32,000 nucleotides of DNA from Sinorhizobium meliloti (GCF_017876815.1 NZ_JAGIOS010000003.1:810001-842000); one strand, 5' to 3'; positions 3,482 to 32,000 are shown, numbered from the stretch's first letter. Program-made: numbers and translations. Notes: generated from the sequence alone by a model not told the origin.

Positions 3482-3671
3482 CGCGGCACCCCCTAGCTTC
3501 CGGCTGAAGGCGGCCAACATGGTCCGCAAGGAACTCTTCTCATAAGGCGAGCTGCTGCGATCAGCGCCTACAGCGCCGTCGTGTCTTCGGACGCACCGAT
3601 CTCGCCGTAGCTTCTTCAGTTGCTACATGTTTTTTACCCTTTGATCGGCTCCAATTAGGCAAACCTGCGGG

Positions 3672-4763
3672 TTACTCAACAGGCACGTACTCGCCACTTT
3701 TCCAAACATACCATACCCAGCTTTGGACTGTGAGATCGCCCTTCTTATCAAAGTCGATCCGGCCCAGCACCGTATCGAATTGGTCTTCGCGCAGCGCCGC
3801 TATCACCGCCTGAAGGTCAAGCGAGTTCGCCTTCGTGACCGCTTGAGCCCAGATCTCGGCAGCGCCGTAGCTGTGGAGCGTCCAGGAATCCGGCTCGAAG
3901 TTTTCAGCCCTAAAGCGCTCGACGACCTCCGCGGCCTCAGCATTTCGACGCGGGTCGGCGACAAAGGTGAAGAGCGTCCCCTCGGCGGCAGGGCCGGCAA
4001 TAAGGCCAAATGCCTCGGTCGCGGTGTCGTCGCCCGAGATAAGCTGGACCGGGTAGGCGCGGTCGCGCGCGGCGCGGACCATAAGGGCTGCCTCCGTATG
4101 ATAACCCCCAAGATAAAGCACCGCGATATGTGCCGTCTGCAACGCGGCGACCTCAACCGAGTAATCGTCCTTTCCGGGCGTGTAGCTTTGATAAACCGCT
4201 TCGGTCACGCCCCGCTTGTTGAGTTGCTTCTTCGTCTCGTCGGCAAGTCCCTTCCCATAGGTCGTGTTGTCGTGAAGGATCGCAATCTTGCTGTCGCCCC
4301 AGTGGTCCGCCAGATAGTTGCCGGCCTTGTGGCCCTGGGCATCGTCGCGACTGCAGACGCGGAAGACATTGGCGTGCCCTTGCTCAGTCAACATCGGATT
4401 GGTCGAGGACGGCGAAATCTGCAGAACGCCAGCGGCCGCATAGATCTTCGATGCAGGGATGGAGGCTCCGGAGCAGTAATGCCCGATGACGAAGACTGCA
4501 CCGTCTGCGACCAGCTTCTCGGCGGCCGCAAGCGCCTGCCGAGGATCGCAGAAGTCGTCGGCCACGATCAGCCGAACCTGCTGGCCGAGCACACCGCCTG
4601 CGGCATTGATATTGGCAACGGCCATCTCCGCACCGCGCCTAAGCTGGGTGCCGGTCCAGGCGAGCTTACCGCTCATCGGGCCAGCGACGCCGATCAGGAC
4701 TTCCGCCTCACTCTGGGATGCAAGCGCGAATGCAAGTGCAGCAGCGGCGAAAAGATGGCGCAT
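3672..4763 (-). CDS. Periplasmic branched-chain amino acid/amide-type (LivJ/LivK, PBP type 1) substrate-binding protein; orphan
   Basis: Sec signal MRHLFAAAALAFALASQSEA, then a LivJ-like pattern (IGVAGPMSGK, GGVLGQQV, VIGHYCSGASIPAS). A G-rich SD precedes ATG 4763. No liv-type permease or ATPase genes are adjacent. Confidence 0.85.
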   Translation of the reverse strand: MRHLFAAAALAFALASQSEAEVLIGVAGPMSGKLAWTGTQLRRGAEMAVANINAAGGVLGQQVRLIVADDFCDPRQALAAAEKLVADGAVFVIGHYCSGASIPASKIYAAAGVLQISPSSTNPMLTEQGHANVFRVCSRDDAQGHKAGNYLADHWGDSKIAILHDNTTYGKGLADETKKQLNKRGVTEAVYQSYTPGKDDYSVEVAALQTAHIAVLYLGGYHTEAALMVRAARDRAYPVQLISGDDTATEAFGLIAGPAAEGTLFTFVADPRRNAEAAEVVERFRAENFEPDSWTLHSYGAAEIWAQAVTKANSLDLQAVIAALREDQFDTVLGRIDFDKKGDLTVQSWVWYVWKSGEYVPVE

Positions 4764-5018: not shown

Positions 5019-6120
5019 TTCTATTTCCAAGTGCGACATGCCAATAAAAACAAAGGCTTCGCCTTGGAGATTTTTGGATGTCGCTTTGCTATTCGCAACT
5101 CACCCTTTCCGATCGACGACGTTTGCATCAGCTCGTGGAACGCAAAGTTCCTGTCGGTGAGATCGCCCGCCAACTCGGTCGGCATCGATCGACGATCTAT
5201 CGTGAACTGAAGCGCAATACCTTTCATGATGCCGAGTTTCCGGAATACAGCGGCTATTACAGCGGTATCGCCAACGACATCTCGAAGGAGCGTCGGCGAC
5301 GGCTGCGCAAGCTCAGCCGCCACCCGCAATTGCGCGAACTGGTCATCGAGCAGCTGAAGGCACTTTGGTCGCCGGAGCAGATCGCCGGCCGTCTGCTTGC
5401 CGATGGTGTGAGCGCCGTCCGCGTCTGCACCGAGACGATCTATCGCTTCATCTATAGCAAGGAAGATTATGCGCTGGAGCTCTATCAGCATCTGCCGGAA
5501 GGCCGTCGTAAGCGCCGCCCACGCCGCTCCCGCAAACCCCGTGACGGCTCGATCCCGTTGGACTGCAGGATCAGCCAACGCCCTGATTTCATTGCCGATC
5601 GCTCTCAGTTCGGCCACTGGGAGGGTGATCTCCTGATCTTCCGGCGCGACCTTGGTGAAGCCAATGTCACCTCGCTGGTCGAGCGCAAGAGCCGCTACAC
5701 GGTGATGATCAAGAATGGCAGCCGTCACTCTCGTCCGCTCATCGACAAGATCATCGATGCCTTCTCACCGCTACCCGCCTTTGCCCGGCAGAGCTTCACC
5801 TTCGACCGTGGTACCGAGTTTCGCGGTTTCAAGGCTTTGGAAGATGGACTCGGCGCCAGGAGCTGGTTTTGCGATCCGAATTCACCGTGGCAGAAAGGCG
5901 CGGTCGAGAACACCAACAAGCGCATCCGTCGCTTTGTGCCGAGCGATACGGACCTGTCCGCCGTCAACCAGCCGCAACTGGTCGCCCTCGCCCACCATCT
6001 CAATTCACTGCCCAGGAAATGCCTTGGTTACCGCACGCCCGCCGAGGTCTTCATGGCCCATTTGCGCGATTGCGGGTAATCCCCTACCCTCCACCCGTCA
6101 TTGTTGCACTTGGATTAGAT
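5019..6120 (+). mobile_element. IS30-family insertion sequence (about 1.1 kb), apparently intact
   Basis: Imperfect terminal inverted repeats. Left 5019-5040 is TTCTATTTCCAAGTGCGACATG; the reverse complement of right 6099-6120 is ATCTAATCCAAGTGCAACAATG. They share the core TCCAAGTGC. The element encloses one transposase ORF. Ends are uncertain by a few bp and no target duplication could be called. Confidence 0.75.
5078..6079 (+). CDS. IS30-family DDE transposase
   Basis: 333 aa. N-terminal HTH (VPVGEIARQLGRHRSTIYRELKRN). IS30-type catalytic region (HWEGDL, FDRGTEF, PWQKGAVENTNKRIRRF, LNSLPRKCLGYRTPAEVF). Confidence 0.92.
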   Translation: MSLCYSQLTLSDRRRLHQLVERKVPVGEIARQLGRHRSTIYRELKRNTFHDAEFPEYSGYYSGIANDISKERRRRLRKLSRHPQLRELVIEQLKALWSPEQIAGRLLADGVSAVRVCTETIYRFIYSKEDYALELYQHLPEGRRKRRPRRSRKPRDGSIPLDCRISQRPDFIADRSQFGHWEGDLLIFRRDLGEANVTSLVERKSRYTVMIKNGSRHSRPLIDKIIDAFSPLPAFARQSFTFDRGTEFRGFKALEDGLGARSWFCDPNSPWQKGAVENTNKRIRRFVPSDTDLSAVNQPQLVALAHHLNSLPRKCLGYRTPAEVFMAHLRDCG

Positions 6121-15656: not shown

Positions 15657-17102
15657 GTGAACGTGGCAGAGCGCAAGAAGCAGACAGTGGTGAGCTCTGG
15701 TATCTCTGGGCTAGACGAAATCCTCCGCGGCGGCTTGCCAGCATCAAATCTCTACATCGTCCAGGGCGCACCGGGGTCGGGCAAGACGACCGCGGCGCTG
15801 CAATTCCTCCGCGCTGGTGTCGCGCTGGGCGAGCCCTGCATTTATGTCAGCCTGTCTCAGACCAGAGCCGAGTTGGAGGCGATCGCGCGGTCGCACGGCT
15901 GGACCCTCGATGGAATCCGCGTGGAGGAACTTTCCGCTTCAGATTCGATAAACCGGGCCGCCGACCAGACCATCTTCCAGACGACTGAACTCCGTCTGGA
16001 CGAGACGAGAAAAGCGATCGAAAGCGCAATCGAAGAGCATAAGCCGAGCCGATTGGTTTATGATTCCCTGTTGGAAATCCGGCTGATTACCGCCGATTCA
16101 CCCCGATTCCGACGCGAGCTGATCGCCTTCAAAGCGTTCCTCGCCCAGCGCAACATCGTGGCACTGTTGCTCGACACGCAAACCTCCGAGACGGATCGAA
16201 CGGGCGAAGAGGTCGACGGCATCGCCCACGGGGTCATTCGCCTGGACAAATCACTCGAAGAATATGGGGGCGTTCGCCGCCGCATTGAGGTGAGTAAGAT
16301 GCGTGGCGTTCCCGTCGCCGATGGCTATCACGACATGGCGATCCGCGAGGGCGAAGGCGTCGTCGTGTTCCCGCGAATCGTACCGGGTGCGGCGGCGAGA
16401 ACCGTCAAGCCGCAGCTGATCAAGTCGGGTGTCGATACTCTGGACGAAATGTTCGGCGGCGGGCAGGAATCGGGAACGACAACGCTCGTCATAGGCCAGG
16501 CGGGCACCGGTAAATCGACGATGGCGTCGCTCTATGCGACTGCAGCCCTCAAGCGCGGTGAAAGTGTTGGGCTCTTCCTGTTCGAGGAACGAATCGAGAC
16601 ATTCTTCCGGCGCTCCGAGGGGCTGGGAATGGCTCTGCGTCAGTTCCATGAGGATGGCCAGCTGATCCTCCGCGACTTCAATCCCAACGAGATCTCGCCG
16701 GGAGAGTTCGGCCAGATCGTCCAGCAATCGGTGAACAGTGAAAAGGTGAAGGTCGTCGTAATCGACAGCTTCACTGGATATTTGAATTCGCTGCCACATC
16801 GTGAGAAAGCGGTTCGCGACATACAGTCGCTCCTCAAATATCTCGCCCGGGCCGGCGTCCTCACGATTCTCATCGTCGCGCAACACGGTCTGCTCGGCCA
16901 GGGCGTAGGCATTGACGTCGATGTGAGCTTTCTGGGTGACACCGTGCTTCTGCTGCGAATTGCGGAACACGAGGGCAGGCTCCGGCGCAGCATCACGGTC
17001 GTGAAGAAGCGGCATGGCCCGCACGATCTCGATGTACGCGAATTGTTCATTCAAAGCTCGGGCGTCTCGGTGATCGCGTATAACCCGCTCCCGGAGGTGT
17101 GA
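15657..17102 (+). CDS. kaiC: KaiC-family double RecA-like-domain ATPase
   Basis: Two KaiC-type domains. Walker A GAPGSGKT and GQAGTGKS; Walker B RLVYDS and VVVIDS; KMRG and KKRHG motifs. GTG 15657 or, better spaced from GAGAGG, GTG 15663. Confidence 0.88.
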   Translation: MNVAERKKQTVVSSGISGLDEILRGGLPASNLYIVQGAPGSGKTTAALQFLRAGVALGEPCIYVSLSQTRAELEAIARSHGWTLDGIRVEELSASDSINRAADQTIFQTTELRLDETRKAIESAIEEHKPSRLVYDSLLEIRLITADSPRFRRELIAFKAFLAQRNIVALLLDTQTSETDRTGEEVDGIAHGVIRLDKSLEEYGGVRRRIEVSKMRGVPVADGYHDMAIREGEGVVVFPRIVPGAAARTVKPQLIKSGVDTLDEMFGGGQESGTTTLVIGQAGTGKSTMASLYATAALKRGESVGLFLFEERIETFFRRSEGLGMALRQFHEDGQLILRDFNPNEISPGEFGQIVQQSVNSEKVKVVVIDSFTGYLNSLPHREKAVRDIQSLLKYLARAGVLTILIVAQHGLLGQGVGIDVDVSFLGDTVLLLRIAEHEGRLRRSITVVKKRHGPHDLDVRELFIQSSGVSVIAYNPLPEV

Positions 17103-17108
17103 TCGCTC

Positions 17109-18152
17109 GTGGACGCGACCGACAGCCCTCTCGACTGGGTGTTGACGATGGCTCCTTATCGGCGCGACGCCGAGCATTTGGAAGCGCTCTTGGCCCAAAA
17201 TGGCTTGCCCGTCCGGCGCGCGGAGGGCGTGGAAGAGCTGACGGCGCTGTTGGAACAGGGTCCAGGAGTTCTTGTCGCGACCCACGAGGCGCTTAATCCG
17301 GAGGTCCTGGAGGTGATCCGCCGGTATTTGATCGACCAGCCTGAGTGGTCTGAGATGCCCCTCGTCATCCTGCTGGATCGCGCAGTGCCTCAGGCCCGCG
17401 TCCGCGCCGAGCTGTCGGCAGCCTGGCCCCGCTCACGCCAGCTCTATTACCAGCGTCCTGTCACCACGCTGGAATTGCTAAGCGGTATCCAGTCGATTCT
17501 GCTGGCGCGTCTGCGTCAACGCGACATACGCGATCGCATCGAGCGCGAGATCGAACTGCGACGCGAGCTCAACCATCGAGTAAAGAACATCTTGGCCAGC
17601 ATTTCCTCCATCTTCCAGATGACCCGGCGACGCGCTGTTTCACTCGATGAGTTCGCCGAAGATTTCGCGGGCCGGCTCGCGGCGCTTGCCAACGTACATT
17701 CGGCGGTCTTTCAGGCGGACGGTGAAGCGGTCGAATTCTCCAGCGTTGTTGAACTGACCTTCAGTCCATACCGAGTAAGAGGCACGGATCGCCTCGTCTT
17801 CACAGGTCCAACGGTCCTGCTGCGTCCGGATGCAGCGACCACGCTTGCGCTTTGCCTCCACGAGCTGGCGACCAACGCGCTCAAGTATGGTGCGCTCTCG
17901 ACACCAGAAGGCCGGGTCAGCTTGCAATGGTCCGTTTCGCAAGAGGCCGATCTGCTGAGCCTTGAATGGGTCGAGAGTGGAGGTCCGTCAGTGTCGGAGC
18001 CGTCGAGGAGTGGATATGGAACGCGGTACATCCGCTCGGCGTTGTCTAGTCAGTTTGGCACGCCGCCGGTCATCCTGTTTCATCCGCAGGGATTGCGTTG
18101 CATCGTATCGGGCCCGCTTTCGCGCGTATCACCGAGGCAGCCGGAGGTATAG
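17109..18152 (+). CDS. HWE-family sensor histidine kinase with N-terminal pseudo-receiver domain
   Basis: GTG 17109 with GGAGGTG 9 nt upstream. H-box LNHRVKNILASISSIF, N-box HELATNALKYGAL, W-x-E LEWVESGGP, G-box SGYGTRYI. The N-terminal roughly 125 aa have receiver-like alternation (VLTMAPYRRD, VLVATHEAL, PLVILLD) but no acidic pocket or phospho-Asp. No TM segments. Confidence 0.88.
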   Translation: MDATDSPLDWVLTMAPYRRDAEHLEALLAQNGLPVRRAEGVEELTALLEQGPGVLVATHEALNPEVLEVIRRYLIDQPEWSEMPLVILLDRAVPQARVRAELSAAWPRSRQLYYQRPVTTLELLSGIQSILLARLRQRDIRDRIEREIELRRELNHRVKNILASISSIFQMTRRRAVSLDEFAEDFAGRLAALANVHSAVFQADGEAVEFSSVVELTFSPYRVRGTDRLVFTGPTVLLRPDAATTLALCLHELATNALKYGALSTPEGRVSLQWSVSQEADLLSLEWVESGGPSVSEPSRSGYGTRYIRSALSSQFGTPPVILFHPQGLRCIVSGPLSRVSPRQPEV

Positions 18153-18923: not shown

Positions 18924-19967
18924 CTACTCGCCACAAAACAGCTTCCACTTCGTGGGGCGGAGCGCGATACAGGTGCGGTCGGCCGAGGACGCCAGCTCGG
19001 GCGGCAACTCAACCTCGATCGACGACTGTGTCTTGCCGAGATCCAATTCGAGGTGGCGCGTGCCCGCTACACGCCGACTCGCCGTGACACGCCCGGCGAG
19101 ACAGCCACTGCCACCCTCAATGAGCTCGACGTCGTGCGGGCGGAAGAAGAGGGTTGCCTGCCCGTCCTGCTCGTTCGCGGCGCGAAGGCCGATTGGGCGA
19201 CCCTCGAACCAGATCTCACCATTGGCAAGCGTGACGTTGAGACAATTGGACTGACCGATGAAGCCGTAGACGAAAGGCGAGACGGGGTGATCGTAGATCT
19301 CGTCGGGGGTGCCGACTTGCTCGATCGCGCCCTTGCTCATCACTACGACGCGGTCGGCAAGCTCGAGTGCCTCTTCCTGGTCATGGGTGACGAAGAGGGT
19401 CGTGTACCCGGTGCGGTCGTGGATTTCGCGGAGCCACCGGCGAAGTTCCTTGCGAACCTGCGCGTCGAGCGCGCCGAAGGGCTCGTCGAGCAGCAGCACG
19501 CTCGGTTCGACCGCCATAGCGCGGGCGAGCGCCACCCGCTGCCGCTGGCCCCCAGAAAGCTGGGCCGGATAGCGTTTTTCGAGCCCAGAGAGCTGCACCA
19601 AGTCGATGAGGTCGAGCGCACGACGGCGGATCTCTGCGGCGGGCGGCCGCCGGTTGGCGGGCCGTACCTTGAGCCCGAATGTGACATTGTCGAGCACCGT
19701 CATGTGGCGGAACAGGGCGTAGTGCTGGAAGACGAAGCCGATATTGCGCTCCTGGACGGTCCTCTTCGATGCGTCCTCGTCGCCGAAGAAGATCATGCCC
19801 TCGGTCGGGCTTTCGAGGCCAGCAATTAGCCTGAGCAGCGTCGTCTTTCCTGAACCCGACGGGCCGAGGAGCGCAATCAGCTCGCCGGAGAGGATGTCGA
19901 GTGTGACGTCGACGAGCGCCGGGAAGCGGCCGAATTCTTTGCGGAGGCTCTCGACCCGGACTTCCAT
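18924..19967 (-). CDS. cysA: Sulfate/thiosulfate ABC transporter ATP-binding protein
   Basis: ATG 19967 ([15 protein letters not shown]); the ORF-track start at 20003 is TTG. Walker [10 protein letters not shown], signature [14 protein letters not shown], Walker [12 protein letters not shown]. CysA-type C-terminal regulatory/TOBE-like domain. Confidence 0.88.
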
Positions 19968-20048: not shown

Positions 20049-21074
20049 CTATCGTCCGGGACTATAGATACGATCGAAGATACCGCCAGCGCCGAAGAAC
20101 TTCGGCTGAGCTTCCTTCCATCCGCCGAACTCGTCAATGGTGACCAGTGTGAGATCGGCGAAGCGGTCGATGTCCTTCTGATCCGCTGCCTCGGGCTTGA
20201 ACGGCCGATAGTAGTGTTTGGCGACGATCTTCTGCCCCACATCACTGTAGAGATAATTGAGGTAGGCTTCCGCCATCTTGCGCGTGCCCTTACGGTCGAC
20301 ATTGCCGTCGACAAGCGCCACCGGCGGCTCGGCTCTGATCGAAATCGAGGGCGTAACGATATCGAAGTTGTCGGGGCCGAGTTCTTCGAGCGCGAGGTAG
20401 GCTTCGTTTTCCCAGGCGAGCAGCACGTCGCCGAGACCGCGCTGGACGAAGGTGGTCATCGCTCCCCACGCGCCAGTGTCGAGAGCGAGAACATGCTTGA
20501 AGAGTTGCGCCACATATTCCTCCGCCTTGGCATCGTCGCCGTTGTTCGTCGCCCGCGCCCACGCCCAGGCCGCCAGGAAATTCCAGCGGGCGCCGCCCGA
20601 GGTCTTCGGGTTAGGCGTGATCACCTGGATGCCTTCCTTGGTCAGATCGCTCCAATCCCTGATGCCTTTCGGGTTACCCTTGCGGACGAGAAAGACGACC
20701 GTCGAGGTGTAGGGAGCGCTGTCGTTCTCAAGACGGGTTTTCCAATCAACAGGGATCTTGCCGGTGGCCTGCGCAATCGCGACGATGTCCGCTTCAAGCG
20801 CGAGCGTCACCACATCGGCGTTCAGGCCGTCGATCACCAAGCGCGCCTGCTTTCCGGAGCCGCCATGCGATGTCTGGATCGTCACCGTCTCGCCCGTATC
20901 CGCCTGCCATTTTTCGGCAAAGGCGGCGTTGAATTCCTTGTAGAGTTTCCGTGTCGAGTCATAGGACACGTTCAGGATCGTCGTGTCCGCCTGAGCGAGA
21001 CCGATATAACCGAGCTGCAGCATTCCGACCAGAAGAGCTCGTTTCACGACTTCGGCAAGTCTATCGGTTCGCAT
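20049..21074 (-). CDS. sbp: Periplasmic sulfate/thiosulfate-binding protein (Sbp/CysP)
   Basis: ATG 21074 is preceded by AAGGAGG. Signal peptide ...LLVGMLQLGYIGLAQA. Sulfate-binding-protein motifs (NVSYDSTRKLY, TSHGGSGKQARLVIDGLNADVVTLALEADI, NPKTSGGARWN). Confidence 0.88.
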   Translation of the reverse strand: MRTDRLAEVVKRALLVGMLQLGYIGLAQADTTILNVSYDSTRKLYKEFNAAFAEKWQADTGETVTIQTSHGGSGKQARLVIDGLNADVVTLALEADIVAIAQATGKIPVDWKTRLENDSAPYTSTVVFLVRKGNPKGIRDWSDLTKEGIQVITPNPKTSGGARWNFLAAWAWARATNNGDDAKAEEYVAQLFKHVLALDTGAWGAMTTFVQRGLGDVLLAWENEAYLALEELGPDNFDIVTPSISIRAEPPVALVDGNVDRKGTRKMAEAYLNYLYSDVGQKIVAKHYYRPFKPEAADQKDIDRFADLTLVTIDEFGGWKEAQPKFFGAGGIFDRIYSPGR

Positions 21075-22540: not shown

Positions 22541-23764
22541 TCAAAACACCTTCCCTTCCCTCAGATGCGTGGTCGTGCCGTTCAGCAGATAGTCGCCCAG
22601 CACACGCGATTTGTGCAGCAACGGGTTGTGGTTGAGTATCGTGCGGATATTGCGCCAGTGCCGATCGAAGTTGTTGTTGCGGGAGGTCGCCGACCCGCCT
22701 CCGAGCTCGAACATGCGCCCGGCGCTTCGCAATCCGAGCTGACCAAGAACGAGTTGCGTTCGCGCCGTCGAAAGCGCACTGGCGATCAAGGCATCCTCGA
22801 TCTCGACATCCGTTCCCACTCCGAGTGCGGCAGCCGAGCGGTCCAGCGCCTCCGCAGCTGTTGCGACCGCCGCATCGATAGCAAAGGAATTCGCAGCGAT
22901 TTCGCCGATAACCTGCTGGACGAAAGAATCTTCACTTGCCGTTTCGGCGCTGCTGTGGGCGGCGGAGCGCGCCTGTTTCCGGACATAGGCGAGCCCGTCC
23001 GACAGAACGTTGCGCACGGCGCCGGCGGCGCTCGCCGCCAGATGCAACTGGCGCAGTGTCGAACAATGCCGGCCAACGAGACTGTCGAGGGTGCGGCGGG
23101 ACAACTCGTGCGGAAATACCTCGACATTGTCGAGGATCACACTGCCGCTTGCCGTTAGTCGCTGCCCCATGCCATCCCAATCGTCGAGAATTGTGATGCC
23201 TTGCCTGTCGACTGGCAGCAGAACACCGACTGCCTGCCCTTCCTCATCCAGCGCACTGAACGAAGCAAAATCGGCGAAGGCCGTTCCGGTGGCGTACCAT
23301 TTTCGGCCGTTGAGCCTATAGGTTTCACCCTGCCTGACAATCTTCGTCGTCACCTGTCCAGGACGGGCCGTGCCCTGCTCGGTGTGGGCACCGCCGAAGA
23401 GCTTTCCAGCGAGGATCAATTCAATCGCACCGCCGTCGCGCTCGCGAGGTTCGCTCAAGATGACGTTTTCAACATAGTTGAAATGCGCTCTCAGCGCATG
23501 TGCGACGTTCGAATCGGCAGCGCCAATCGCGGCTATCATCTCGATATAGTCGGCAACCGAACCGCCCGGCCCCCCGAGTGAAACCGGGACACGGAGGGTC
23601 CCAAGTTCCAGTTCACGGAAAAGCTCAAAGGCTTCGAAGGGGAGCTTACGCGAAAGATCTCGCTCGGCCGCACCCTTTGCGACTTCGGACACGAAGGCAG
23701 GAATGCGCGCAAGAAGTTCCGCGCGTGTTGGGCGGGACTCGGTCAGCGCCTTGGTTATCGTCAC
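22541..23764 (-). CDS. sfnB: SfnB/DszC-like flavin-dependent sulfur-acquisition oxidoreductase (acyl-CoA dehydrogenase fold)
   Basis: 407 aa; GTG 23764 with GGAG upstream. ACAD-like fold. The C-terminal ..GGGSATSRNNNFDRHWRNIRTILNHNPLLHKSRVLGDYLLNG..GKVF is what I recall as characteristic of the SfnB family. Confidence 0.75.
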   Translation of the reverse strand: MTITKALTESRPTRAELLARIPAFVSEVAKGAAERDLSRKLPFEAFELFRELELGTLRVPVSLGGPGGSVADYIEMIAAIGAADSNVAHALRAHFNYVENVILSEPRERDGGAIELILAGKLFGGAHTEQGTARPGQVTTKIVRQGETYRLNGRKWYATGTAFADFASFSALDEEGQAVGVLLPVDRQGITILDDWDGMGQRLTASGSVILDNVEVFPHELSRRTLDSLVGRHCSTLRQLHLAASAAGAVRNVLSDGLAYVRKQARSAAHSSAETASEDSFVQQVIGEIAANSFAIDAAVATAAEALDRSAAALGVGTDVEIEDALIASALSTARTQLVLGQLGLRSAGRMFELGGGSATSRNNNFDRHWRNIRTILNHNPLLHKSRVLGDYLLNGTTTHLREGKVF

Positions 23765-23851: not shown

Positions 23852-25483
23852 TTACGATTGCCCGTCGAGATAAATGTCCGCCCCGTTGCTCCAGAGATGC
23901 TCGACACCCAGTTTCAGGTTCTTCACCCGCTTGTCGTAGACGGTGATCACCGCCGGCGTGACGATATCGAGCGTCGGTAAGTCCTCGACCACCAGCTTCT
24001 GGAACTCGTTGAAGAGTTCCAACCGCTTCTTCGGGTCGATCTCGACGGCGGCCGTTTCGAGCAGCCGGTCGACTTCCGGATTCGAATATTTGGAACCGTT
24101 GGTGAAGGGGACGCCCGGTTTGAAGTTTTTCGACCAGTAGAGGCGCTGGACGCCGACGGTCGGGTCGTAGAGATTGCTCATGCCCTCGATGGCGATGTCG
24201 AAGTCTCGATCAGTGAAGACGCGCTTGACGAAAGTCGCGAAGTCCTGCGTTCGCAGTTCCACCTTGATGCCAACCTTGGCAAGCGCCTGTGCGATGTATT
24301 CCGCGGTCTGCTTGGGAGGACCGGACGGCTGGGTCGGATCGATGAACAGCTTGAAGCGAAAACCATCGGCGCCGCGCGCGTAACCTGCCTCATCCAAAAG
24401 CTTCTCGGACTTCGCCGGGTCGAACTCGTACTTGGGAAGGTCCGGCGAGTAGAACTGCGCAAGGTCCGGGCTAACCGGTCCGTCGAGGCGGGTGGCGTAG
24501 CCGAGGTAGACGGTGTTGACGATGAAATCCTTGTCGACCGCATGCGCGATCGCATGTCGCACCTTGATGTCGGCCAGATACTTGTTCTCAAGGTTGAACT
24601 CCGCGCGGGCAATGCTCGGTGAATACGGCGCCGGGTCGGTATCGACGACGAGGTTCGGTTTGGCCTTCAGCCGGTCGATATCGGTCAGCGGCAGGTTGGC
24701 CGTCGAGACCTGCACCTCGCCGGTCTCGATCGCGGCCACAGCTGCGGCGGGGTCGACGATGAACCGGAAGATGATCTGGTCGAGGTACGGCTTTGGCGAC
24801 CCCCAATAGTCTTCGTTGCGCACGAAAAGCGCGTGACTTCCGCGAACCCATTCGACGAACTTGTAAGGGCCGGTGCCAACCGGCGCGACGTTGTGCGGGT
24901 TTTCAGCAATCTTCGTTCCCTCGTAGAGATGTTTGGGAACGATCGGCGCTTCGAAGCTGGCGAAGGCGGTCAGCAGGTACGGAGCCGGTTTCGCAAGGGT
25001 CAGTTCCACCTCATGCGAATTGAGGACATTCGCCTCTTTCACATGCGCGAAGGTCGCCCGGCCGCGCGGATGGTTCTCCTTCAGCGCCAGGATTGAAAAA
25101 GCGACGTCTTCAGCAGTGAAATCCCTGCCGTCGTGCCAGCGCACGTCCTGACGCAGCTTGAACCAGTAGCGCAGGCCATCTTCGCTCACCGTCCACTCCG
25201 TGGCGAGCAGAGGTTGAGGATTGAAATCCTTGTCGTAGCTCAGCAGGCTCTCGGTCGCCTTGCCGCTGATGTAATAGGCAGCGCCGGCACTGTGGGCAAT
25301 GAGCACGAGAACCGGCGGCTCCGTGCCGATGTTGATCGAGACGCTGCCGCCGCGCGTCGGCTCCTCGGCAGCGAACGAGGGCACCGGCAGCACTGGCATG
25401 GCAGTCGCGGTTGCAAGTGCAACGGAGGAAAGGAGGAACGCGCGTCGCGTAAGCTTCAAAATCGCAGTCTTTCTTGATGTCAT
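23852..25483 (-). CDS. ABC transporter substrate-binding protein, family 5 (peptide/nickel/glutathione type), Tat-type signal peptide
   Basis: 543 aa. The N-terminus LKLTRRAFLLSSVALATATAMP resembles a twin-arginine signal. The body is DppA/OppA/GsiB-like (RGGSVSINIGTEPP, VRWHDGRDFTAEDV, GTGPYKFVEW). Confidence 0.88.
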   Translation of the reverse strand: MTSRKTAILKLTRRAFLLSSVALATATAMPVLPVPSFAAEEPTRGGSVSINIGTEPPVLVLIAHSAGAAYYISGKATESLLSYDKDFNPQPLLATEWTVSEDGLRYWFKLRQDVRWHDGRDFTAEDVAFSILALKENHPRGRATFAHVKEANVLNSHEVELTLAKPAPYLLTAFASFEAPIVPKHLYEGTKIAENPHNVAPVGTGPYKFVEWVRGSHALFVRNEDYWGSPKPYLDQIIFRFIVDPAAAVAAIETGEVQVSTANLPLTDIDRLKAKPNLVVDTDPAPYSPSIARAEFNLENKYLADIKVRHAIAHAVDKDFIVNTVYLGYATRLDGPVSPDLAQFYSPDLPKYEFDPAKSEKLLDEAGYARGADGFRFKLFIDPTQPSGPPKQTAEYIAQALAKVGIKVELRTQDFATFVKRVFTDRDFDIAIEGMSNLYDPTVGVQRLYWSKNFKPGVPFTNGSKYSNPEVDRLLETAAVEIDPKKRLELFNEFQKLVVEDLPTLDIVTPAVITVYDKRVKNLKLGVEHLWSNGADIYLDGQS

Positions 25484-26168: not shown

Positions 26169-27230
26169 TCAGGCGACGCGCTGCGAACGGGCAAGCGGAA
26201 TGATCTCGGCTTCCGTCGCGCCGGACCTCGGCTCGCGTCCCTCGAGAGGATGACCCGGATCGGTGAAGCCCGGGGTCGAAGGATGGCCGGGCGCGACCAG
26301 GCGATCGACCAGGGCCTCGTCTTCCGCATCAAGCTTGACGTCGAGTGCGCGAATGTAGCCATCCCAGTGCTCTTCGGTGCGCGGGCCCGCAATGGTCGAT
26401 GTGATCAGCCGGTTATTGAGCACCCAGGCGAGCGCAAAATCGGCGGCTGCGATGCCCTTGGCTTGTGCGTGGACGGCAATCTGCTTGGCGATCGAGATCG
26501 ATTCTTCGCGGAACTCCACGTCGTGCATCCGCTTGTCGCCGCGCCCGGCGCGGGTATCGGCGGCCGGCGCTTCGCCGGGATTGTATTTGCCCGTCAGGAC
26601 GCCACGCGCCAGCGGGCTATAGGACACGGCACCCAGTCCATAAGCGGCAGCCGCCGGCAATTGCTCGGCCTCTGCCGTGCGGTTGACAATGTTATAGAGC
26701 GGCTGGCTGGCGATCGGCCGGTCGATGCCGAGCTGGTCGGCGAGATGGGCGACTTCTGCAATGCGCCACCCCCTGAAATTCGAAACCCCGAAATAGCGCA
26801 GCTTGCCGGCCTTGATCAGGTCGGCGATCGCCCGCACCGGCTCTTCGAGCGGCGCATCGAAGACGGCGCGGTGGAAATAGAGGATGTCAATATAGTCCGT
26901 GCCGAGATTGCGCAGCGAGCTCTCGACGGTCTGGTAGACCCACTTGCGCGAATAGCCGCCGAGGTTCGGCCCCTTCTGGCGCGAATTAACGAACTTCGTC
27001 GCCACCACCCAGTGATCGCGATGCGCCTTGATGCCGCGCCCGACCACCTCTTCCGACTTGCCGTCGTGGTAGACGTCCGCCGTGTCGATGAAGTTGATGC
27101 CCTGTTCGCGCGCCTTGTCGATGATGCGGAAGGCGACGTCATCAGGCGTCTGGTTGCCGAACATCATGGATCCGAGTGTCAGCGGCGACACTTTGAGGGC
27201 GCTGCGCCCAAGATAGCGATACTCAACCAT
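26169..27230 (-). CDS. Aldo/keto reductase (Tas/YajO-like)
   Basis: 353 aa. MVEYRYLGRSALKVSPLTLGSMMFG, GINFIDTADVY, HRDHWVVATKF and YIDILYFH. GGAGA SD. It starts 14 nt after the upstream ATPase stop. Confidence 0.9.
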   Translation of the reverse strand: MVEYRYLGRSALKVSPLTLGSMMFGNQTPDDVAFRIIDKAREQGINFIDTADVYHDGKSEEVVGRGIKAHRDHWVVATKFVNSRQKGPNLGGYSRKWVYQTVESSLRNLGTDYIDILYFHRAVFDAPLEEPVRAIADLIKAGKLRYFGVSNFRGWRIAEVAHLADQLGIDRPIASQPLYNIVNRTAEAEQLPAAAAYGLGAVSYSPLARGVLTGKYNPGEAPAADTRAGRGDKRMHDVEFREESISIAKQIAVHAQAKGIAAADFALAWVLNNRLITSTIAGPRTEEHWDGYIRALDVKLDAEDEALVDRLVAPGHPSTPGFTDPGHPLEGREPRSGATEAEIIPLARSQRVA

Positions 27231-27244
27231 TCAAGTTCTCCATT

Positions 27245-28189
27245 TCAGTTGATGTGGTCCGCAACATGGCAGGCCACGTGATGGCCGGGCTTGATGGCGC
27301 GGAATTCAGGTTCGGCAACACGGCAAAGCTCGGTCGCCAACGGGCATCGGGTGTGGAACCGACAGCCAGGGGGAATGTTGTTCGGGCTCGGCAACTCGCC
27401 GCCAAGCGGAGCCGCCTGTCTCGGCCGCGAGGGATCGGGAACGGCGGCCATCAGCGCTCGCGTATATGGATGGCGCGGGTCCGACCAAAGCGTCTCGTTG
27501 TCGGCGCTTTCCACGATCCGACCGAGATACATGACCAGAACCCGATCGCAGAAATAGCGCACCACCGACAGGTCATGGCTGATGAAGAGGTAGGAGAGAC
27601 CAAACTCCTTCTTCATCTCCACCAGGAGGTTCAGGATCTGTGCCTGGATCGACAGGTCTAGCGCCGAAACGGGCTCGTCGCAGACGATCAGTTCAGGATT
27701 GAGCAGTAGCGCGCGGGCAATGCCGATCCTTTGCCGCTGGCCCCCTGAGAATTCGTGCGGGTAGCGGTTGATGGCGTCGGCAGGCAGCCCGACCTTGGCG
27801 ACGATGCTGGCGACAGTGCGACGGCGTTCTGGCGGGCTGCCGGCCTTGTGCACGATCAGCGGCGCTTCCAGGATTTCACCGATCGTGTGTCGCGGATTGA
27901 GCGATGCGAATGGGTCCTGAAAGATCATCTGGATCGACTTGCGGACGTTTCTCAGCCGCCCCTGGTCGAGTGCCGTGATGTCCTGGCCCTTGAACTCGAT
28001 CCGCCCCGCGGTCGGATCGACAAGGCGCAGAAGTGTCTTGCCAAGCGTCGACTTGCCGCAACCACTTTCACCGACAAGCCCGACGGTCTCGCCACGCTCG
28101 ACCACGAGATCGACGCCATCGACCGAGCGCAACAGTCCGTCGCGGGTCTTGTAATGGGTCTTGAGATTAGAGGCTGAGATGAGCGGCAT
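27245..28189 (-). CDS. Oligopeptide/dipeptide-type ABC transporter ATP-binding protein (DppF/OppF-like)
   Basis: ATG 28189 ([13 protein letters not shown]). Walker [10 protein letters not shown], signature [15 protein letters not shown], Walker [14 protein letters not shown]-terminal oligopeptide-type extension with a Cys cluster (GCRFHTRCP). Confidence 0.88.
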
Positions 28190-29165
28190 CGGGGACGGCC
28201 TTGAGGGACGAGGTGAACGGGCAGGCGACGAGTCGGTCCGGCGTTTGAGCAATCAAAGGCGGCACCTGATGGGCGCAGCTTGCGCGCGCTTGGCGACAGC
28301 GCGGTCTGAAGGGACAACCCGCCTCGCCTGCCGCAGAAACGATCGTTCCGGGGATCTCGGTGAGCGGACCGTTCAGATAGTGAAAGTCGTTCTTCAAGCG
28401 CGGCGAAGCCGAAAGCAGCCCGCGCGTATAGGGATGCAGAGGATCGTTGAAGAGATCGCCGGGCAGTGCCTGCTCGACCTTGCGGCCGGCATACATCACG
28501 ACGACCTTATCGGCCCATTGCGCGACGACGCCGAGGTCGTGGGTGATCAAAACGACAGCCATCTGCAGCTCGCGCCTGAGGGTGTCGAGGAGATCCAGAA
28601 CCTGCGCCTGGATCGTCACATCGAGCGCCGTCGTCGGCTCGTCGGCAATCAGCAGTTTCGGCCGGCAGGCGACCGCCATGGCGATCATGACCCGCTGGCG
28701 CATGCCGCCCGAGAGTTGGTGCGGATAGTCGTCGATCCGCTTTTCGGCGGCAGGGATGCGCACGAGCTTCAGAAGCTCGATCGCGCGTTCTCGCGCCGCC
28801 CTGGCCGAGACGTTTTCATGCACCTTCAGCACTTCGCCGATCTGCCGGCCGATCGACATGACAGGATTGAGGCTCGTCATCGGCTCCTGAAAGATCATGG
28901 CGATCTCGCGCCCGCGCAGGCGTCGCATTTCTCGCGCATCCAGATCCAGGAGGTCGCGGTCGTCAAAGATGATGCGGCCGCTGGTCACTTGTGCTGCGCG
29001 CGGCAGCAATTGCATCAGGGCGAGCGCCGTCAGCGATTTGCCCGAACCGGATTCTCCGACGATCGCCAGTGTCTCGCCCGCCCCAACCTCAAACGACAGG
29101 TTGCGGACCGGTTCCGCGCGCGGAAAGCCGATGGTGAGGTTTTCGACCTGAAGCAGCGGCGCCAT
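28167..29165 (-). CDS. Oligopeptide/dipeptide-type ABC transporter ATP-binding protein (DppD/OppD-like)
   Basis: ATG 29165 ([14 protein letters not shown]). Walker A GESGSGKS, signature [14 protein letters not shown], Walker [14 protein letters not shown]-terminal GCPFRPRC. Confidence 0.88.
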
Positions 29166-29167
29166 CG

Positions 29168-30166
29168 TCAACGATCCTGCGTGAAGCGCGGATTGAGAGC
29201 GTCGTTCAGTCCGTCACCGATGAGGTTGAGCGCAAGCACCGTAAAGACGATCGCGAGGCCCGGAAGCGCTGTCAGGTACCAGGCGGTTCGGACCAGTTCG
29301 CGGCCGGTGCCGATCATCGAGCCCCAGCTCACCACATTCGGATCGCCGAGACCCATGAAGGAGAGCGCCGACTCCATCAGGATCGCGGTTGCGACCATGA
29401 CCGAAGAAGTGACGATGATCGGCGGCAGTGCATTCGGTAAGATCTCGCAAAAGATGATCCGACCATCGCCAAAGCCGAGACTGCGGGCGGCCATGACAAA
29501 ATCCTTTTCACGGATTGCACGGAATTCGGCCCTGGTCAGCCGCGCGACCGTCGGCCAGGAGATGACGGCAATCGCAAGGGTGACGGTGGTTGCCGAAGGT
29601 TGGACAATCGCGACCAGAACGACGAGGAGCACGAAGCTCGGCAGAGTCTGGAAGATCTCGATGAGCCTGACGAGTAGGTCGTCGATCCAGCCACCGAAGT
29701 AACCGGCAATCGCACCGACGAAAACACCGAAGGTGAGACCGAGCGCCGTCGCCATAAGCCCCACGAACAAGGAGATCCGCGACCCGTGCAGAATGCCTGC
29801 CAGGACGTCACGACCAAGCGAATCCGTGCCGAGCGGAAAACCTGGATGCTGGCCTGGCCAGAGGAACGGTTTTCCAACCATGGACAGGGGGTCGCCGGGA
29901 TAGAGCACCGGCGCCAGCAGTGCGACGGCGATCACGAGCGCGAGGAATGCAGTGCCGAACAGCGCATTGGGGTTGGCGAGAAAGACCTTCAGTGCCCTCC
30001 GCCCGTTGGTAATGGCGACCGCTGCGGTCTGCTGAGAGCGCGCGTCGGGAGCCTTCATATTGCTCCAGGCCGGACGTTCCGGCGCGGTTGCCTGCTCGTT
30101 CGTGGCCGGAGCAGCATAGGCGCCGCCCGTGACAGCTGGAAAGGCCCCGAAGTCGGTGGTGGACAT
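29168..30166 (-). CDS. ABC transporter permease (DppC/OppC-like)
   Basis: 332 aa with multiple TM helices and a BPD-type permease core (GTDSLGRDVLAGILHGSRISL, EFRAIREKDFVMAARSLG). Its ATG overlaps the upstream stop by 1 nt (TGATG). An alternative start is ATG 30058. Confidence 0.85.
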   Translation of the reverse strand: MSTTDFGAFPAVTGGAYAAPATNEQATAPERPAWSNMKAPDARSQQTAAVAITNGRRALKVFLANPNALFGTAFLALVIAVALLAPVLYPGDPLSMVGKPFLWPGQHPGFPLGTDSLGRDVLAGILHGSRISLFVGLMATALGLTFGVFVGAIAGYFGGWIDDLLVRLIEIFQTLPSFVLLVVLVAIVQPSATTVTLAIAVISWPTVARLTRAEFRAIREKDFVMAARSLGFGDGRIIFCEILPNALPPIIVTSSVMVATAILMESALSFMGLGDPNVVSWGSMIGTGRELVRTAWYLTALPGLAIVFTVLALNLIGDGLNDALNPRFTQDR

Positions 30167-31152
30167 CAGCGAGCTCCTATTCGGGGATCGAGCCAGGCGT
30201 GGACGAGGTCCACTGCCGCGTTGGCGATGATGACGAGAAGAGAGGACAGGAGCAGGATGCCGAGCAGCACGGTGAAATCCCGGCCCATGACCGCCTCGAA
30301 GGCGAGGCGACCTAGACCCGGCCAGCTATAGACGGTTTCCACCACCACCGCGCCGCCGAGCATGCCGCCGATGTGCATTCCAGCCATGGTCGTGATCGGG
30401 ATCAGCGCGTTTCGCAGAATGTGCCTCGCTGTCACGCCAAACGGCGTCAGACCCTTGGCATAGGCGGTGCGCACGAAATCATGGTTCTTGACTTCGAGCA
30501 TGGCAGCGCGTGTCAGCCGCGCATAGATCGCGACGTAGAAGAGCGCGAGCGAGGTCGCTGGCAGCACCATGTAGCGCGCCTTATCGAGCAGTGCCGGGAA
30601 CCCTTTCAACTGCGAGCCGATCGTCGCCGCGCCGCCGCTCGGCAGCCAACCGAGTTTGACCGAGAAGAGCACGATCAGCATCAGGCCGATCCAGAAGCTC
30701 GGGATCGAGTAAAAGAGCAGCGAGAAGATTGACAGCAGGCGGTCCGGGATCCGTCCTGCAAAGCTTGCCATTAGCGATCCCAACACGACCCCGAGAAGGA
30801 TGGCAATGAAGAGCGCAACCGCCATCAGCGTCAGTGTTCCCGGCAGGCGCTGGACAATCAGGTCGGCAACCGGCATGCCGTAGCGCGGTGAAAATCCAAG
30901 ACTGAACTGAGCGAGGTTGCCGAGGTAGGTCGCCAATTGCTCGAGCACCGGACTATCCAGCCCGAAGCGGGCTCTCAGCGCCGCAACACTCTCTTCCGTC
31001 GCCGAACCCGCCTCGCCGGCCAGAACATCCGCCGCGTCACCAGGTGCCAACTGCAAAAGGAAGAAGTTCAGGATCACGATTCCGAGGATCGTCGGAACCG
31101 CCTGCAGAAGTGTTCGTCGAAGCGTTCGCGCAATTCTGATCAGCACCGGCAT
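30166..31152 (-). CDS. ABC transporter permease (DppB/OppB-like)
   Basis: ATG 31152 (MPVLIRIARTLRRTLLQAVPTILGIVILNFFLLQLAPGD), preceded by GGAGAGG. DppB-type core (RTAYAKGL, GPR-type C-terminus LDPRI). The upstream part of the 364-aa ORF looks non-coding. Confidence 0.88.
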   Translation of the reverse strand: MPVLIRIARTLRRTLLQAVPTILGIVILNFFLLQLAPGDAADVLAGEAGSATEESVAALRARFGLDSPVLEQLATYLGNLAQFSLGFSPRYGMPVADLIVQRLPGTLTLMAVALFIAILLGVVLGSLMASFAGRIPDRLLSIFSLLFYSIPSFWIGLMLIVLFSVKLGWLPSGGAATIGSQLKGFPALLDKARYMVLPATSLALFYVAIYARLTRAAMLEVKNHDFVRTAYAKGLTPFGVTARHILRNALIPITTMAGMHIGGMLGGAVVVETVYSWPGLGRLAFEAVMGRDFTVLLGILLLSSLLVIIANAAVDLVHAWLDPRIGAR

Positions 31153-31449
31153 CGATGTCGCCTCTCCATTTGGCTGTCCGCCAACGGCGAACCTGCACCT
31201 CGGCCTGATCTTTCGCCGCCGAATGATTTTATAGTTGACTAAATACATAGGCTTTGTCAAATGTGTTTTAGCAATTTCACCCTGCGGCTGGCTGATTACC
31301 GGAACACCATTCCAGTGTTTACGGCCAACCCCGAGATTTGAAGAATTTCAATCCTGCATGAGCACAGTTCTCGCAATGGCCGACTAGGAAGACGCGCTCG
31401 AACGAAAAACGCTTCCCGGCACAGCCCATCAGAGACAGCGGAGGATCCC

Positions 31450-32000
31450 GTGACACGCAAGAATGCCATCTCACACATCTGGTACACGCGCTGCCCCGTG
31501 CCGACACCTATGGGGCTTGCCACCCAGCTTGGCCTCCTCGACACGGCATTTGCCGCCGAGGGCATCAAGCTGAACTCGATCATCGACAGCAAGGATCGCT
31601 CCATCCGGTCTAGCCATTTCGATCACCATCTCGACTATTCGTTTCGCCATGGCGGCAATGTCCCGCCGATTCGCGCCCGCTCGGAAGGCAATCCGACGCG
31701 GCTGGTCGGCATCACCTGGACAGACGAGTTCCAGGCGATCATCACGCTGTCCGAAACCGGGATCAAAACGACACGCGACCTCGTCGGCCGGCGCTTCGGC
31801 ATTGCGCGTCGCCCACCTGGGATCGTCGACTTCATGGCCGCTACCGCTCTGAAGGGCCTCGTTTCCGCTCTCTCGCTCGACGGGCTCGCACCCTCCGACG
31901 TCGAGATCGTCGACATCCCGCTTTCCGAAAGCGTGCTCGACGGCAGAGAGGGGCCGCAGCTCTACGGCCTCAGAAACCGTCAGGCCTATGGCCCCGAAAT
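31450..32000 (+). CDS. Cytoplasmic SBP-fold (NMT1/SsuA-like) protein with DszB-desulfinase-like catalytic pattern; 3' end outside window
   Basis: GTG 31450 with GGAGGA 5 nt upstream. The frame is open to the window end (183 codons): VTRKNAISHIWYTRCPVPTPMGLATQLGLLDTAFAAEGIKL...SHFDHHLDYSFRHGGNVPPI...TRLVGITWTDEFQAIITLSETGIKTTRDLVGRRFGIA. No signal peptide. Not in the ORF track because it runs off the end. Confidence 0.6.
   Translation, partial: MTRKNAISHIWYTRCPVPTPMGLATQLGLLDTAFAAEGIKLNSIIDSKDRSIRSSHFDHHLDYSFRHGGNVPPIRARSEGNPTRLVGITWTDEFQAIITLSETGIKTTRDLVGRRFGIARRPPGIVDFMAATALKGLVSALSLDGLAPSDVEIVDIPLSESVLDGREGPQLYGLRNRQAYGPE

Follow-up and report, generated by a model that had tools for sequence, protein, structure and literature searches.

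DszB, the 2'-hydroxybiphenyl-2-sulfinate (HBPS) desulfinase, is the rate-limiting enzyme of biodesulfurization, and, to our knowledge, nearly all that is known of it comes from actinobacterial dsz cassettes acting on petroleum thiophenes. The gene considered here, sma2087 of Sinorhizobium meliloti (B1 below, together with its orthologues), encodes a relative of this enzyme. It begins at the right end of a 32,000-nt stretch of the megaplasmid pSymA (hereafter the window), whose part 30000-32000 is 100% identical to strain SM11. An earlier note on this DNA had read the encoded protein, SMa2087, as a desulfinase-type enzyme and not as a transport binding protein.

DszB of Rhodococcus erythropolis (EC 3.13.1.3, PDB 2DE2/2DE3) is a leaderless protein with a type-II binding-protein (Venus flytrap) fold. 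Its Cys27 is essential, as C27S abolishes activity, H60Q lowers activity about 17-fold, and Arg70 is part of a conserved RXGG motif; a lid formed by residues 187-204 turns helical on substrate binding, and in the favoured mechanism the aryl carbon is ipso-protonated by the Cys27 proton with the loss of SO2 (PMC6100217). SMa2087 shares with DszB the leaderless fold, the Cys, His and Arg-x-Gly-Gly motif with equal His-to-Arg spacing, and an operon containing an acyl-CoA dehydrogenase (ACAD)-fold and an NtaA/DmoA-family flavin monooxygenase. Unlike dsz, which is a mobile actinobacterial cassette, sma2087 resides on a rhizobial megaplasmid, its operon has two desulfinase-like paralogues, it is linked to genes for an Opp-type importer and an aldo-keto reductase as well as to one of the SfnB family, and the substrate of its product is almost certainly different.

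Three other systems are close enough to be compared. The bdsABC genes of Gordonia terrae C-6, which act on benzothiophene and serve sulfur acquisition (PMC3868597), were compared by gene order and show the same succession of desulfinase, ACAD-type and luciferase-like (LLM) monooxygenase genes as the sma2087 operon, but the rhizobial locus adds a polar-solute importer, which is unneeded for a hydrophobic thiophene. Sinorhizobium sp. KT55 has been reported as a benzothiophene-specific desulfurizer (PMC3868597), which may serve as a lead. SsuA and TauA (TIGR01728) have the NMT1/PBP2 fold and the sulfur-starvation context in common with SMa2087 and are its second-best fold matches, but they are exported, non-catalytic, devoid of the Cys/His/Arg constellation and partnered with SsuBC/TauBC. 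Finally, the SfnG-MsuC-MsuD dimethylsulfone pathway of Pseudomonas also belongs to sulfur starvation, employs ACAD-fold and LLM flavin monooxygenases and passes through a sulfinate, and MsuC is matched at 2.5e-30 by the SfnB-family protein of the window (sma2073); it differs in that the sulfinate is oxidised to a sulfonate, which is then cleaved by an LLM enzyme, and no DszB-like protein takes part.

The start of sma2087 comprises two features:

31440-31445, plus strand: Shine-Dalgarno sequence GGAGGA, 4 nt upstream of GTG 31450
31450-32000, plus strand: 5' part of sma2087 (B1), 183 of 346 codons, with C15, H56 and R66-x-G68-G69 inside

The gene continues past the window end. The complete protein of S. 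medicae and of S. meliloti R28 is 346 aa long, the full-length gene occupying L001:10001-11041 and L082:15451-16491, respectively (L numbers denote the genome loci analysed); in strain 1021, sma2087 starts at pSymA position 1,178,362. The earlier note had quoted an open reading frame from GTG 31450 with a good Shine-Dalgarno sequence and a hydrophilic N-terminus free of an export signal, and both observations hold: the translation is exact, and the start codons of B1 orthologues align with this GTG in the intergenic alignment. Upstream in this frame, a stop lies at 31339, and neither ATG, GTG nor TTG occurs between it and 31450; a longer N-terminus or a hidden leader is therefore impossible. 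The first beta-strand of the fold starts at about residue 9, and the N-terminal hydropathy maximum is 1.16; the genuine periplasmic binding proteins of the window, two in number, reach 1.94 and 1.83. The export signal characteristic of SsuA and TauA is thus missing from the hydrophilic N-terminus, and SMa2087 is, as predicted from its sequence, a cytoplasmic, leaderless protein.

A phmmer search of the PDB (177,635 sequences) with the sma2087 fragment gave DszB 2DE2 as the best match (E 1.1e-7), residues 10-120 being aligned with DszB 22-126. Along this alignment C15 corresponds to Cys27, H56 to His60, R66 to Arg70 and G69 to Gly73; the R-x-G-G motif reads R66-H-G68-G69, and His and Arg are 10 residues apart, as in DszB. 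The DszB sequence and alignment that the earlier note had given proved correct, as did its constellation of Cys, His, Arg and x-G-G with equal His-to-Arg spacing and its longer Cys-to-His loop (41 residues versus 33 in DszB), which is caused by two 4-residue insertions. The C27S mutant chain of DszB scores lower with sma2087 than the wild-type chain, so the Cys itself adds to the match. With full-length B1, DszB was the sole significant relative in the PDB (E 3.8e-16, in two stretches across both lobes), and no SsuA, TauA, ThiY or Thi5 structure appeared at E<=0.5. When DszB 22-126 was used as a tblastn query, the B1 family came directly after the true DszBs. The Dsz proteins for pairwise comparison were taken from an authentic mycobacterial dszABC locus, whose DszB is 29% identical (E 1e-26) to the product of sma2093, a second DszB-like gene of the same operon (B2 below).

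The fold was examined on P0027, which belongs to the clade and shares 62% identity with B1; its AlphaFold2 model was built from a 76-sequence alignment (mean pLDDT 93.8, pTM 0.92). Foldseek against the PDB ranked DszB first (E 2e-19, TM 0.74-0.77), followed by SsuA and TauA (E about 1e-15, TM 0.61-0.64), with Thi5 below all three (TM 0.51-0.54). The sole low-confidence part of the model, 161-180, aligns with R. erythropolis DszB at about 185-209, spanning the 187-204 lid. The Pfam NMT1 match in sma2087 is generic, and the SsuA family model TIGR01728 gives 72.3 bits, below its cutoff of 163.5. At the level of sequence and fold, an identity as THI5/NMT1 hydroxymethylpyrimidine phosphate (HMP-P) synthase is not supported, given only the generic NMT1 match, the low fold rank and no sequence match in the PDB. 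All tests made at the sequence level place sma2087 in the DszB-type desulfinase superfamily.

The orthologue scan, with one genome per species, yielded 80 loci in Sinorhizobium/Ensifer, Neorhizobium, Devosia, Rhizobium, Agrobacterium, Mesorhizobium, Chelatococcus, Phyllobacterium and Sphingobium. The equivalents of Cys27, His60, Arg70 and Gly73 are invariant in all 80 B1 orthologues and in 23 of the 24 B2 paralogues, the one exception being an additional paralogue of Devosia, which has Ser and Tyr. Among 1.84 billion representative proteins, an exhaustive phmmer search found only 463 matches at E<=1e-3, a small total, 294 of them at E<=1e-10; the best 150 of the 463 are mostly 340-370 aa long and aligned from the first ~20 residues, and SsuA-type proteins are absent among these 150. 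The C-H-R-G-G set is present in 79 of 92 unselected near-full-length family representatives, in which R66, G68 and G69 are 99% conserved, H56 92% and C15 89%, and all these columns rank in the top 20 of 346 for conservation. E. coli SsuA and TauA do not have Cys, His or Arg at the equivalent columns. A neighbour-joining tree was built without bootstrap and with SsuA and TauA as its only two outgroup sequences, on which it was rooted, and it gives topology, not strong support; here DszB branches as basal sister to a large clade holding B1 and B2. The two are sister paralogues in this tree, B2 being 51% identical to B1.

sma2087 is the first gene of an eight-gene operon, the rest of which lies past the window end and reads as follows, with the neighbouring SMa2103 listed after it:

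sma2089/sma2091: ACAD-fold protein, directly after sma2087 (L082:16505-17737 in R28)
sma2093: B2, the second DszB-like paralogue, third in operon order
sma2095: NmrA-family protein, after sma2093
sma2097: group-A FAD monooxygenase
sma2099: NAD(P)-binding protein
sma2101: LLM monooxygenase of the NtaA/DmoA family, which contains DszA (TIGR03860, 380 bits versus a cutoff of 279.7)
SMa2103: molybdopterin oxidoreductase, convergent with the operon end

DszA and the sma2101 product are 33% identical (E 4e-60), and SMa2103 is among the putative sulfite-oxidising enzymes of S. meliloti listed by Bastiat et al. The linkage of B1 to ACAD-fold and NtaA/DmoA-family LLM monooxygenase genes, expected of the DszB superfamily, is present here. 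A sample of eight more distant family members gave six informative contigs, and in four of them LLM and/or ACAD-fold monooxygenase genes adjoin the DszB-like gene. One is an operon of flavin reductase, DszB-like, ACAD, ACAD and LLM genes with an Rrf2 regulator alongside; another has the order ACAD, LLM, DszB-like; a third combines LLM, SsuBC and DszB-like genes with two ordinary binding proteins; and the fourth runs LLM, NMT1-like, a variant with Ser for Cys, then TonB receptors. In the other two, the DszB-like gene stands beside a TRAP transporter or a LysR gene.

The ACAD-fold gene is intact in R28 (L082) and S. medicae (L001) and is frameshifted at codon 114/115 in strain 1021 only (L083:19417-20645), where it is annotated as sma2089 and sma2091; the pathway may thus be defective in the standard laboratory strain, or the frameshift may be a sequencing error. 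The closest structures to its product are 5Z8T and 5GJ7 (E 3e-62), both titled 'Acyl-CoA dehydrogenase type 2 domain protein', and DszC, TdsC and MsuC are much more distant; no paper describing them was found in a literature search.

The opposite side of the promoter region is occupied by the divergent operon and further genes in the same orientation:

30166-31152, minus strand: sma2085, Opp/Dpp-type ABC permease (Pfam BPD_transp_1), first gene of the divergent five-gene operon
29168-30166, minus strand: sma2083, Opp/Dpp-type ABC permease, OppC-like
28167-29165, minus strand: sma2081, ABC ATPase with an oligo_HPY C-terminal domain
27245-28189, minus strand: sma2079, ABC ATPase with an oligo_HPY C-terminal domain
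26169-27230, minus strand: sma2077, aldo-keto reductase, last gene of the divergent operon
23852-25483, minus strand: sma2075, family-5 periplasmic binding protein (SBP_bac_5) with a Tat/Sec-like leader, the importer's own
22541-23764, minus strand: sma2073, SfnB-family ACAD-fold flavin monooxygenase, a relative of DszC, TdsC and MsuC

The divergent ABC importer and the SfnB/DszC-like oxygenase gene at 22541-23764 pointed out in the earlier note are thus real. The importer is of the Opp/Dpp type and has its own binding protein, which argues against B1 as a transport component; an SsuBC/TauBC-type permease and ATPase pair was not found near sma2087. The matches of sma2075 are generic binders of peptides, glutathione, nickel and opines and give no decisive substrate lead. 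For sma2073, the best family match is TIGR04022 (274 bits, below the cutoff of 430.9), the PDB matches are TdsC (8e-32), MsuC (2.5e-30) and DszC (1e-24), and the identity with DszC of the comparison locus is 26% (E 4e-28). Synteny was followed by searching every ORF of the 80 loci with the S. meliloti proteins (BLASTP). The conserved core consists of the SfnB-family gene, the aldo-keto reductase gene, two Opp-type ATPase and two Opp-type permease genes and, divergent from them, B1 with the ACAD-fold gene, to which a family-5 binding-protein gene may be joined; in Rhizobium and Agrobacterium, the latter is located directly upstream of B1 on the same strand. sma2077 is syntenic with B1 in nearly all loci and sma2073 in most of the 80, and the Sinorhizobium/Neorhizobium/Devosia/Chelatococcus group adds B2 together with genes for the reductases, the FAD monooxygenase and the LLM enzyme.

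The two divergent transcription units, namely operons of five genes (sma2085-sma2077) and of eight genes (sma2087-sma2101), were defined by diCenzo et al. 2018, who found both promoters up in the absence of pSymB and, specifically, in the deletion dB180 (pSymB 635,940-869,642) (PMC5940162). According to the RNA-seq data of this work, the loss of pSymB raises sma2087 by log2 7.30 (~160-fold), sma2077-sma2097 by log2 6.5-7.2, sma2101 by 5.5, sma2075 by 4.3, sma2073 by 3.9 and sma2103 by 3.3, the whole sma2071-sma2103 block being affected. While the cluster rises ~100-fold, cysA1/cysP1 are not induced (log2 ~0.5). The chromosomal asfA/asfB operon is up by log2 3.4-4.0 in pSymB-less strains and is co-de-repressed in dB180, and cysI and the siroheme synthase gene rise by log2 ~1.1-1.25 (PMC5940162). 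By tblastn, the dB180 interval holds a sulfate ABC transporter (binding protein at 771,894-772,949, CysA at 769,116-770,156) with a 1.7-kb gap between the two genes that could hold cysTW. From the loss of this transporter and the rise of asfAB and cysI, we infer that de-repression of the sma2087 locus is a response to sulfur limitation. As a side observation, sma0089 and sma0091, two 'hypothetical protein' genes of pSymA outside the window, are induced to the same degree as sma2087, reaching log2 7.4 and 7.0 without pSymB (PMC5940162, supplementary file 11).

The divergent promoter region contains one further feature:

31234-31262: operator-like element GTTGACTAAATACATAGGCTTTGTCAAAT, a 29-bp inverted repeat TTGAC-N16-GTCAA

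This palindrome is unique in the window and forms the sole conserved block of the intergenic alignment across six genera. One copy is present in each of 78 of the 81 loci, from at least six genera, and it invariably adjoins the permease gene; 50 shuffles gave 0 matches. The element is probably the operator of a regulator, although no regulator gene adjoins it. The motif was found neither near sma0089/sma0091 (pSymA 30-80 kb) nor in the dB180 interval, so that no wider regulon is defined within the DNA searched. A scan of the intergenic region for sigma-70 promoters and terminators found none.

Taken together, these features favour, at a probability of about 0.6, the reading of SMa2087 as a DszB (sulfinate desulfinase) superfamily enzyme that is cytoplasmic and cofactor-independent and would act as a desulfinase in the pathway encoded by the locus. 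In such a pathway, the locus would be strongly de-repressed, probably by sulfur limitation, and the divergent Opp-type ABC system (sma2075-2085) would import a polar organosulfur compound. Flavin-dependent monooxygenases would then oxidise its sulfur and cut one C-S bond to give a sulfinate, steps for which the locus offers as candidates sma2073 of the SfnB family, sma2089/91 with the ACAD fold, sma2101 of the NtaA/DmoA family and the FAD enzyme sma2097; the NAD(P)H-binding sma2095 and sma2099 could provide their reducing power. SMa2087 and its paralogue SMa2093 would bind the sulfinate through the H56/R66-x-G-G site, and the remaining C-S bond would be cleaved by C15, as by Cys27 in DszB, with the release of sulfite; this terminal cleavage is proposed on the basis of homology to DszB. 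The sulfite may be assimilated via CysI, and any excess may be oxidised by SMa2103, the sulfite-oxidase-like neighbour. That the loops differ from those of DszB and that the importer is of the Opp type suggest a substrate other than HBPS, and the FAD aromatic-type monooxygenase and NmrA-like reductases of the Sinorhizobium-type operon give a hint, useful as a lead, of an aromatic or phenolic product.

What the earlier note had expected of a desulfinase is largely what was observed: the full-length protein clusters with DszB and not with SsuA/TauA by sequence, fold and tree, the Cys, His and Arg are kept in all orthologues and in all but one of the paralogues, LLM, ACAD-fold and FAD monooxygenase genes follow downstream together with NAD(P)H-dependent reductase genes, and the published RNA-seq fits a response to sulfur limitation through a link drawn by us. 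The proposal of a desulfinase-type enzyme is supported in the form of a distant DszB paralogue, not an orthologue.

Several points weigh against this reading. B1 is only 26% identical to DszB (E 4e-22) and falls in the sister clade, not with DszB itself. The substrate-gating regions differ, with indels around DszB 55-62, 128-155 and 187-204: the His loop of B1 is 8 residues longer, B1 is shorter over the stretches equivalent to DszB ~128-155 and to the 187-204 lid, and an 11-residue insertion, GFHPDPKIRIN, is present in B1. The favoured DszB mechanism, an electrophilic aromatic substitution, needs an aryl sulfinate, and the importer, being of the Opp type, points to a polar and possibly aliphatic substrate. 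About 7 of the 92 family representatives (~8%) carry Ser at the Cys position, and catalysis is thus not required of every family member. PMC5940162 makes no mention of sulfur, the sulfur link being ours, and the literature searched contained no direct sulfur-starvation experiment on the locus and no biochemical or genetic study of the activity. The de-repression would be explained equally well by the loss of a pSymB-encoded repressor acting on the locus-specific operator-like element, the 29-bp palindrome in the divergent promoter region. Orthology to DszB proper (EC 3.13.1.3, acting on HBPS) was rejected in view of the identity, the sister-clade position and the loop and lid indels.

An enzyme of the same fold and residues might carry out a different chemistry, acting on a sulfonate, thiosulfonate, sulfoxide, sulfone or thioether intermediate instead of a sulfinate. 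The lid and His-loop indels and the sister-clade position would permit such a change, the operon extras (the FAD monooxygenase and two NmrA/NAD(P)-binding proteins) are unusual, and the operon LLM protein is closest to EDTA monooxygenase and YtnJ, not to DszA. However, the residues that hold the sulfinate in DszB (His60, Arg70, Gly73) and the catalytic Cys are the most conserved positions, and the co-induced putative sulfite oxidase gene beside the operon fits sulfite release. A changed reaction is held to be unlikely.

SMa2087 could also be a non-catalytic cytoplasmic binding protein that hands the imported compound or an intermediate to the monooxygenases, or a sensor. Its fold is that of ligand-binding proteins, two paralogues in one operon could reflect binding roles, and some family members with Ser for Cys lie beside transporters. 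The invariance of Cys, His, Arg and Gly throughout the orthologues, and in all but one of the paralogues, stands against this, and, as C27S abolishes the activity of DszB, selection on the Cys argues for catalysis; a purely binding role is quite improbable. The placement in the periplasm as an ordinary SsuA/TauA-type binding protein of an ABC transporter, for which the RefSeq/PGAP and IMG names, the NMT1 match and the sub-threshold TIGR01728 match could be quoted, is near refuted and was rejected, since a leader is impossible, TIGR01728 remains below its cutoff, DszB is the only significant PDB match, with no SsuA or TauA structure significant by sequence, and the importer nearby is of the Opp type with its own binding protein, not accompanied by an SsuBC-type permease and ATPase.

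The Ser-for-Cys minority, in which the His is sometimes replaced by Tyr, Asn or Leu, includes L019:1849-2895 (minus strand), P0040, P0037, P0076, P0096 and P0147. The P0037 cluster has 292 members, mostly from Pseudomonas, and is found between an LLM gene and TonB-dependent receptor genes. These variants may be non-catalytic or have a different chemistry.

Other parts of the window are of separate interest. A pSymA sulfate-transporter remnant, cysA1 (18924-19967, minus strand) and cysP1 (20049-21074, minus strand), lies without cysT/cysW between the adjacent genes; the pSymB copy is 83-86% identical and has the 1.7-kb gap between the two genes. A KaiC-like double-ATPase gene (15657-17102) is directly followed by an HWE-family histidine kinase gene (17109-18152), and sma2061 and sma2063 near this pair are induced by log2 2.1 and 1.6 in the PMC5940162 dataset. 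An insertion sequence, marked by a transposase-like ORF at 5078-6079 (HTH_38 and rve integrase core), separates a periplasmic binding-protein gene from one of the fatty-acid-hydroxylase family, and a large HAMP-PAS adenylate/guanylate cyclase gene (1022-3529, minus strand) stands beside a Peripla_BP_6 binding-protein gene (3672-4763).

The DszB resemblance is not new: sma2087 and sma2093 were already named 'Desulfurization enzyme' in the annotation used by diCenzo et al. 2018 (PMC5940162), and sma2087 is an uncharacterised member of the DszB-type superfamily. As the resemblance was present in the S. meliloti annotation, the advance is incremental unless the substrate is unusual. The RefSeq/PGAP and IMG label is 'ABC transporter substrate-binding protein', and across the wider family a few database names read 'desulfinase' and most a transporter binding protein, which flags a systematic annotation error. 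No characterised DszB-like enzyme acting outside dibenzothiophene (DBT) desulfurization was found in the literature searched; a Chelatococcus DBT proteomics paper was considered as a prior report of the family and set aside, as it matched classical DszB peptides instead.

A conserved, strongly inducible DszB relative with the catalytic motif is thus distributed across Rhizobiales and tied to an importer, flavin monooxygenases and a putative sulfite oxidase, and S. meliloti, for which reporter fusions exist, offers a tractable model for the natural role and substrates of Dsz-like chemistry. New DszB-like scaffolds may also aid enzyme engineering. Tentatively, the SMa2087/SMa2093 clade, which would be large (about 300 clusters at 50% identity) and mostly mis-annotated, might represent the native last step of a natural 4S-type pathway by which rhizosphere bacteria obtain sulfur from an imported polar organosulfur compound, peptide-like or plant- or microbe-derived. 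If this is true, SMa2087 would possibly be the first desulfinase of the DszB type whose substrate is a non-biaryl and perhaps aliphatic sulfinate, and the physiological ancestor of the 'xenobiotic' dibenzothiophene pathway would be revealed.

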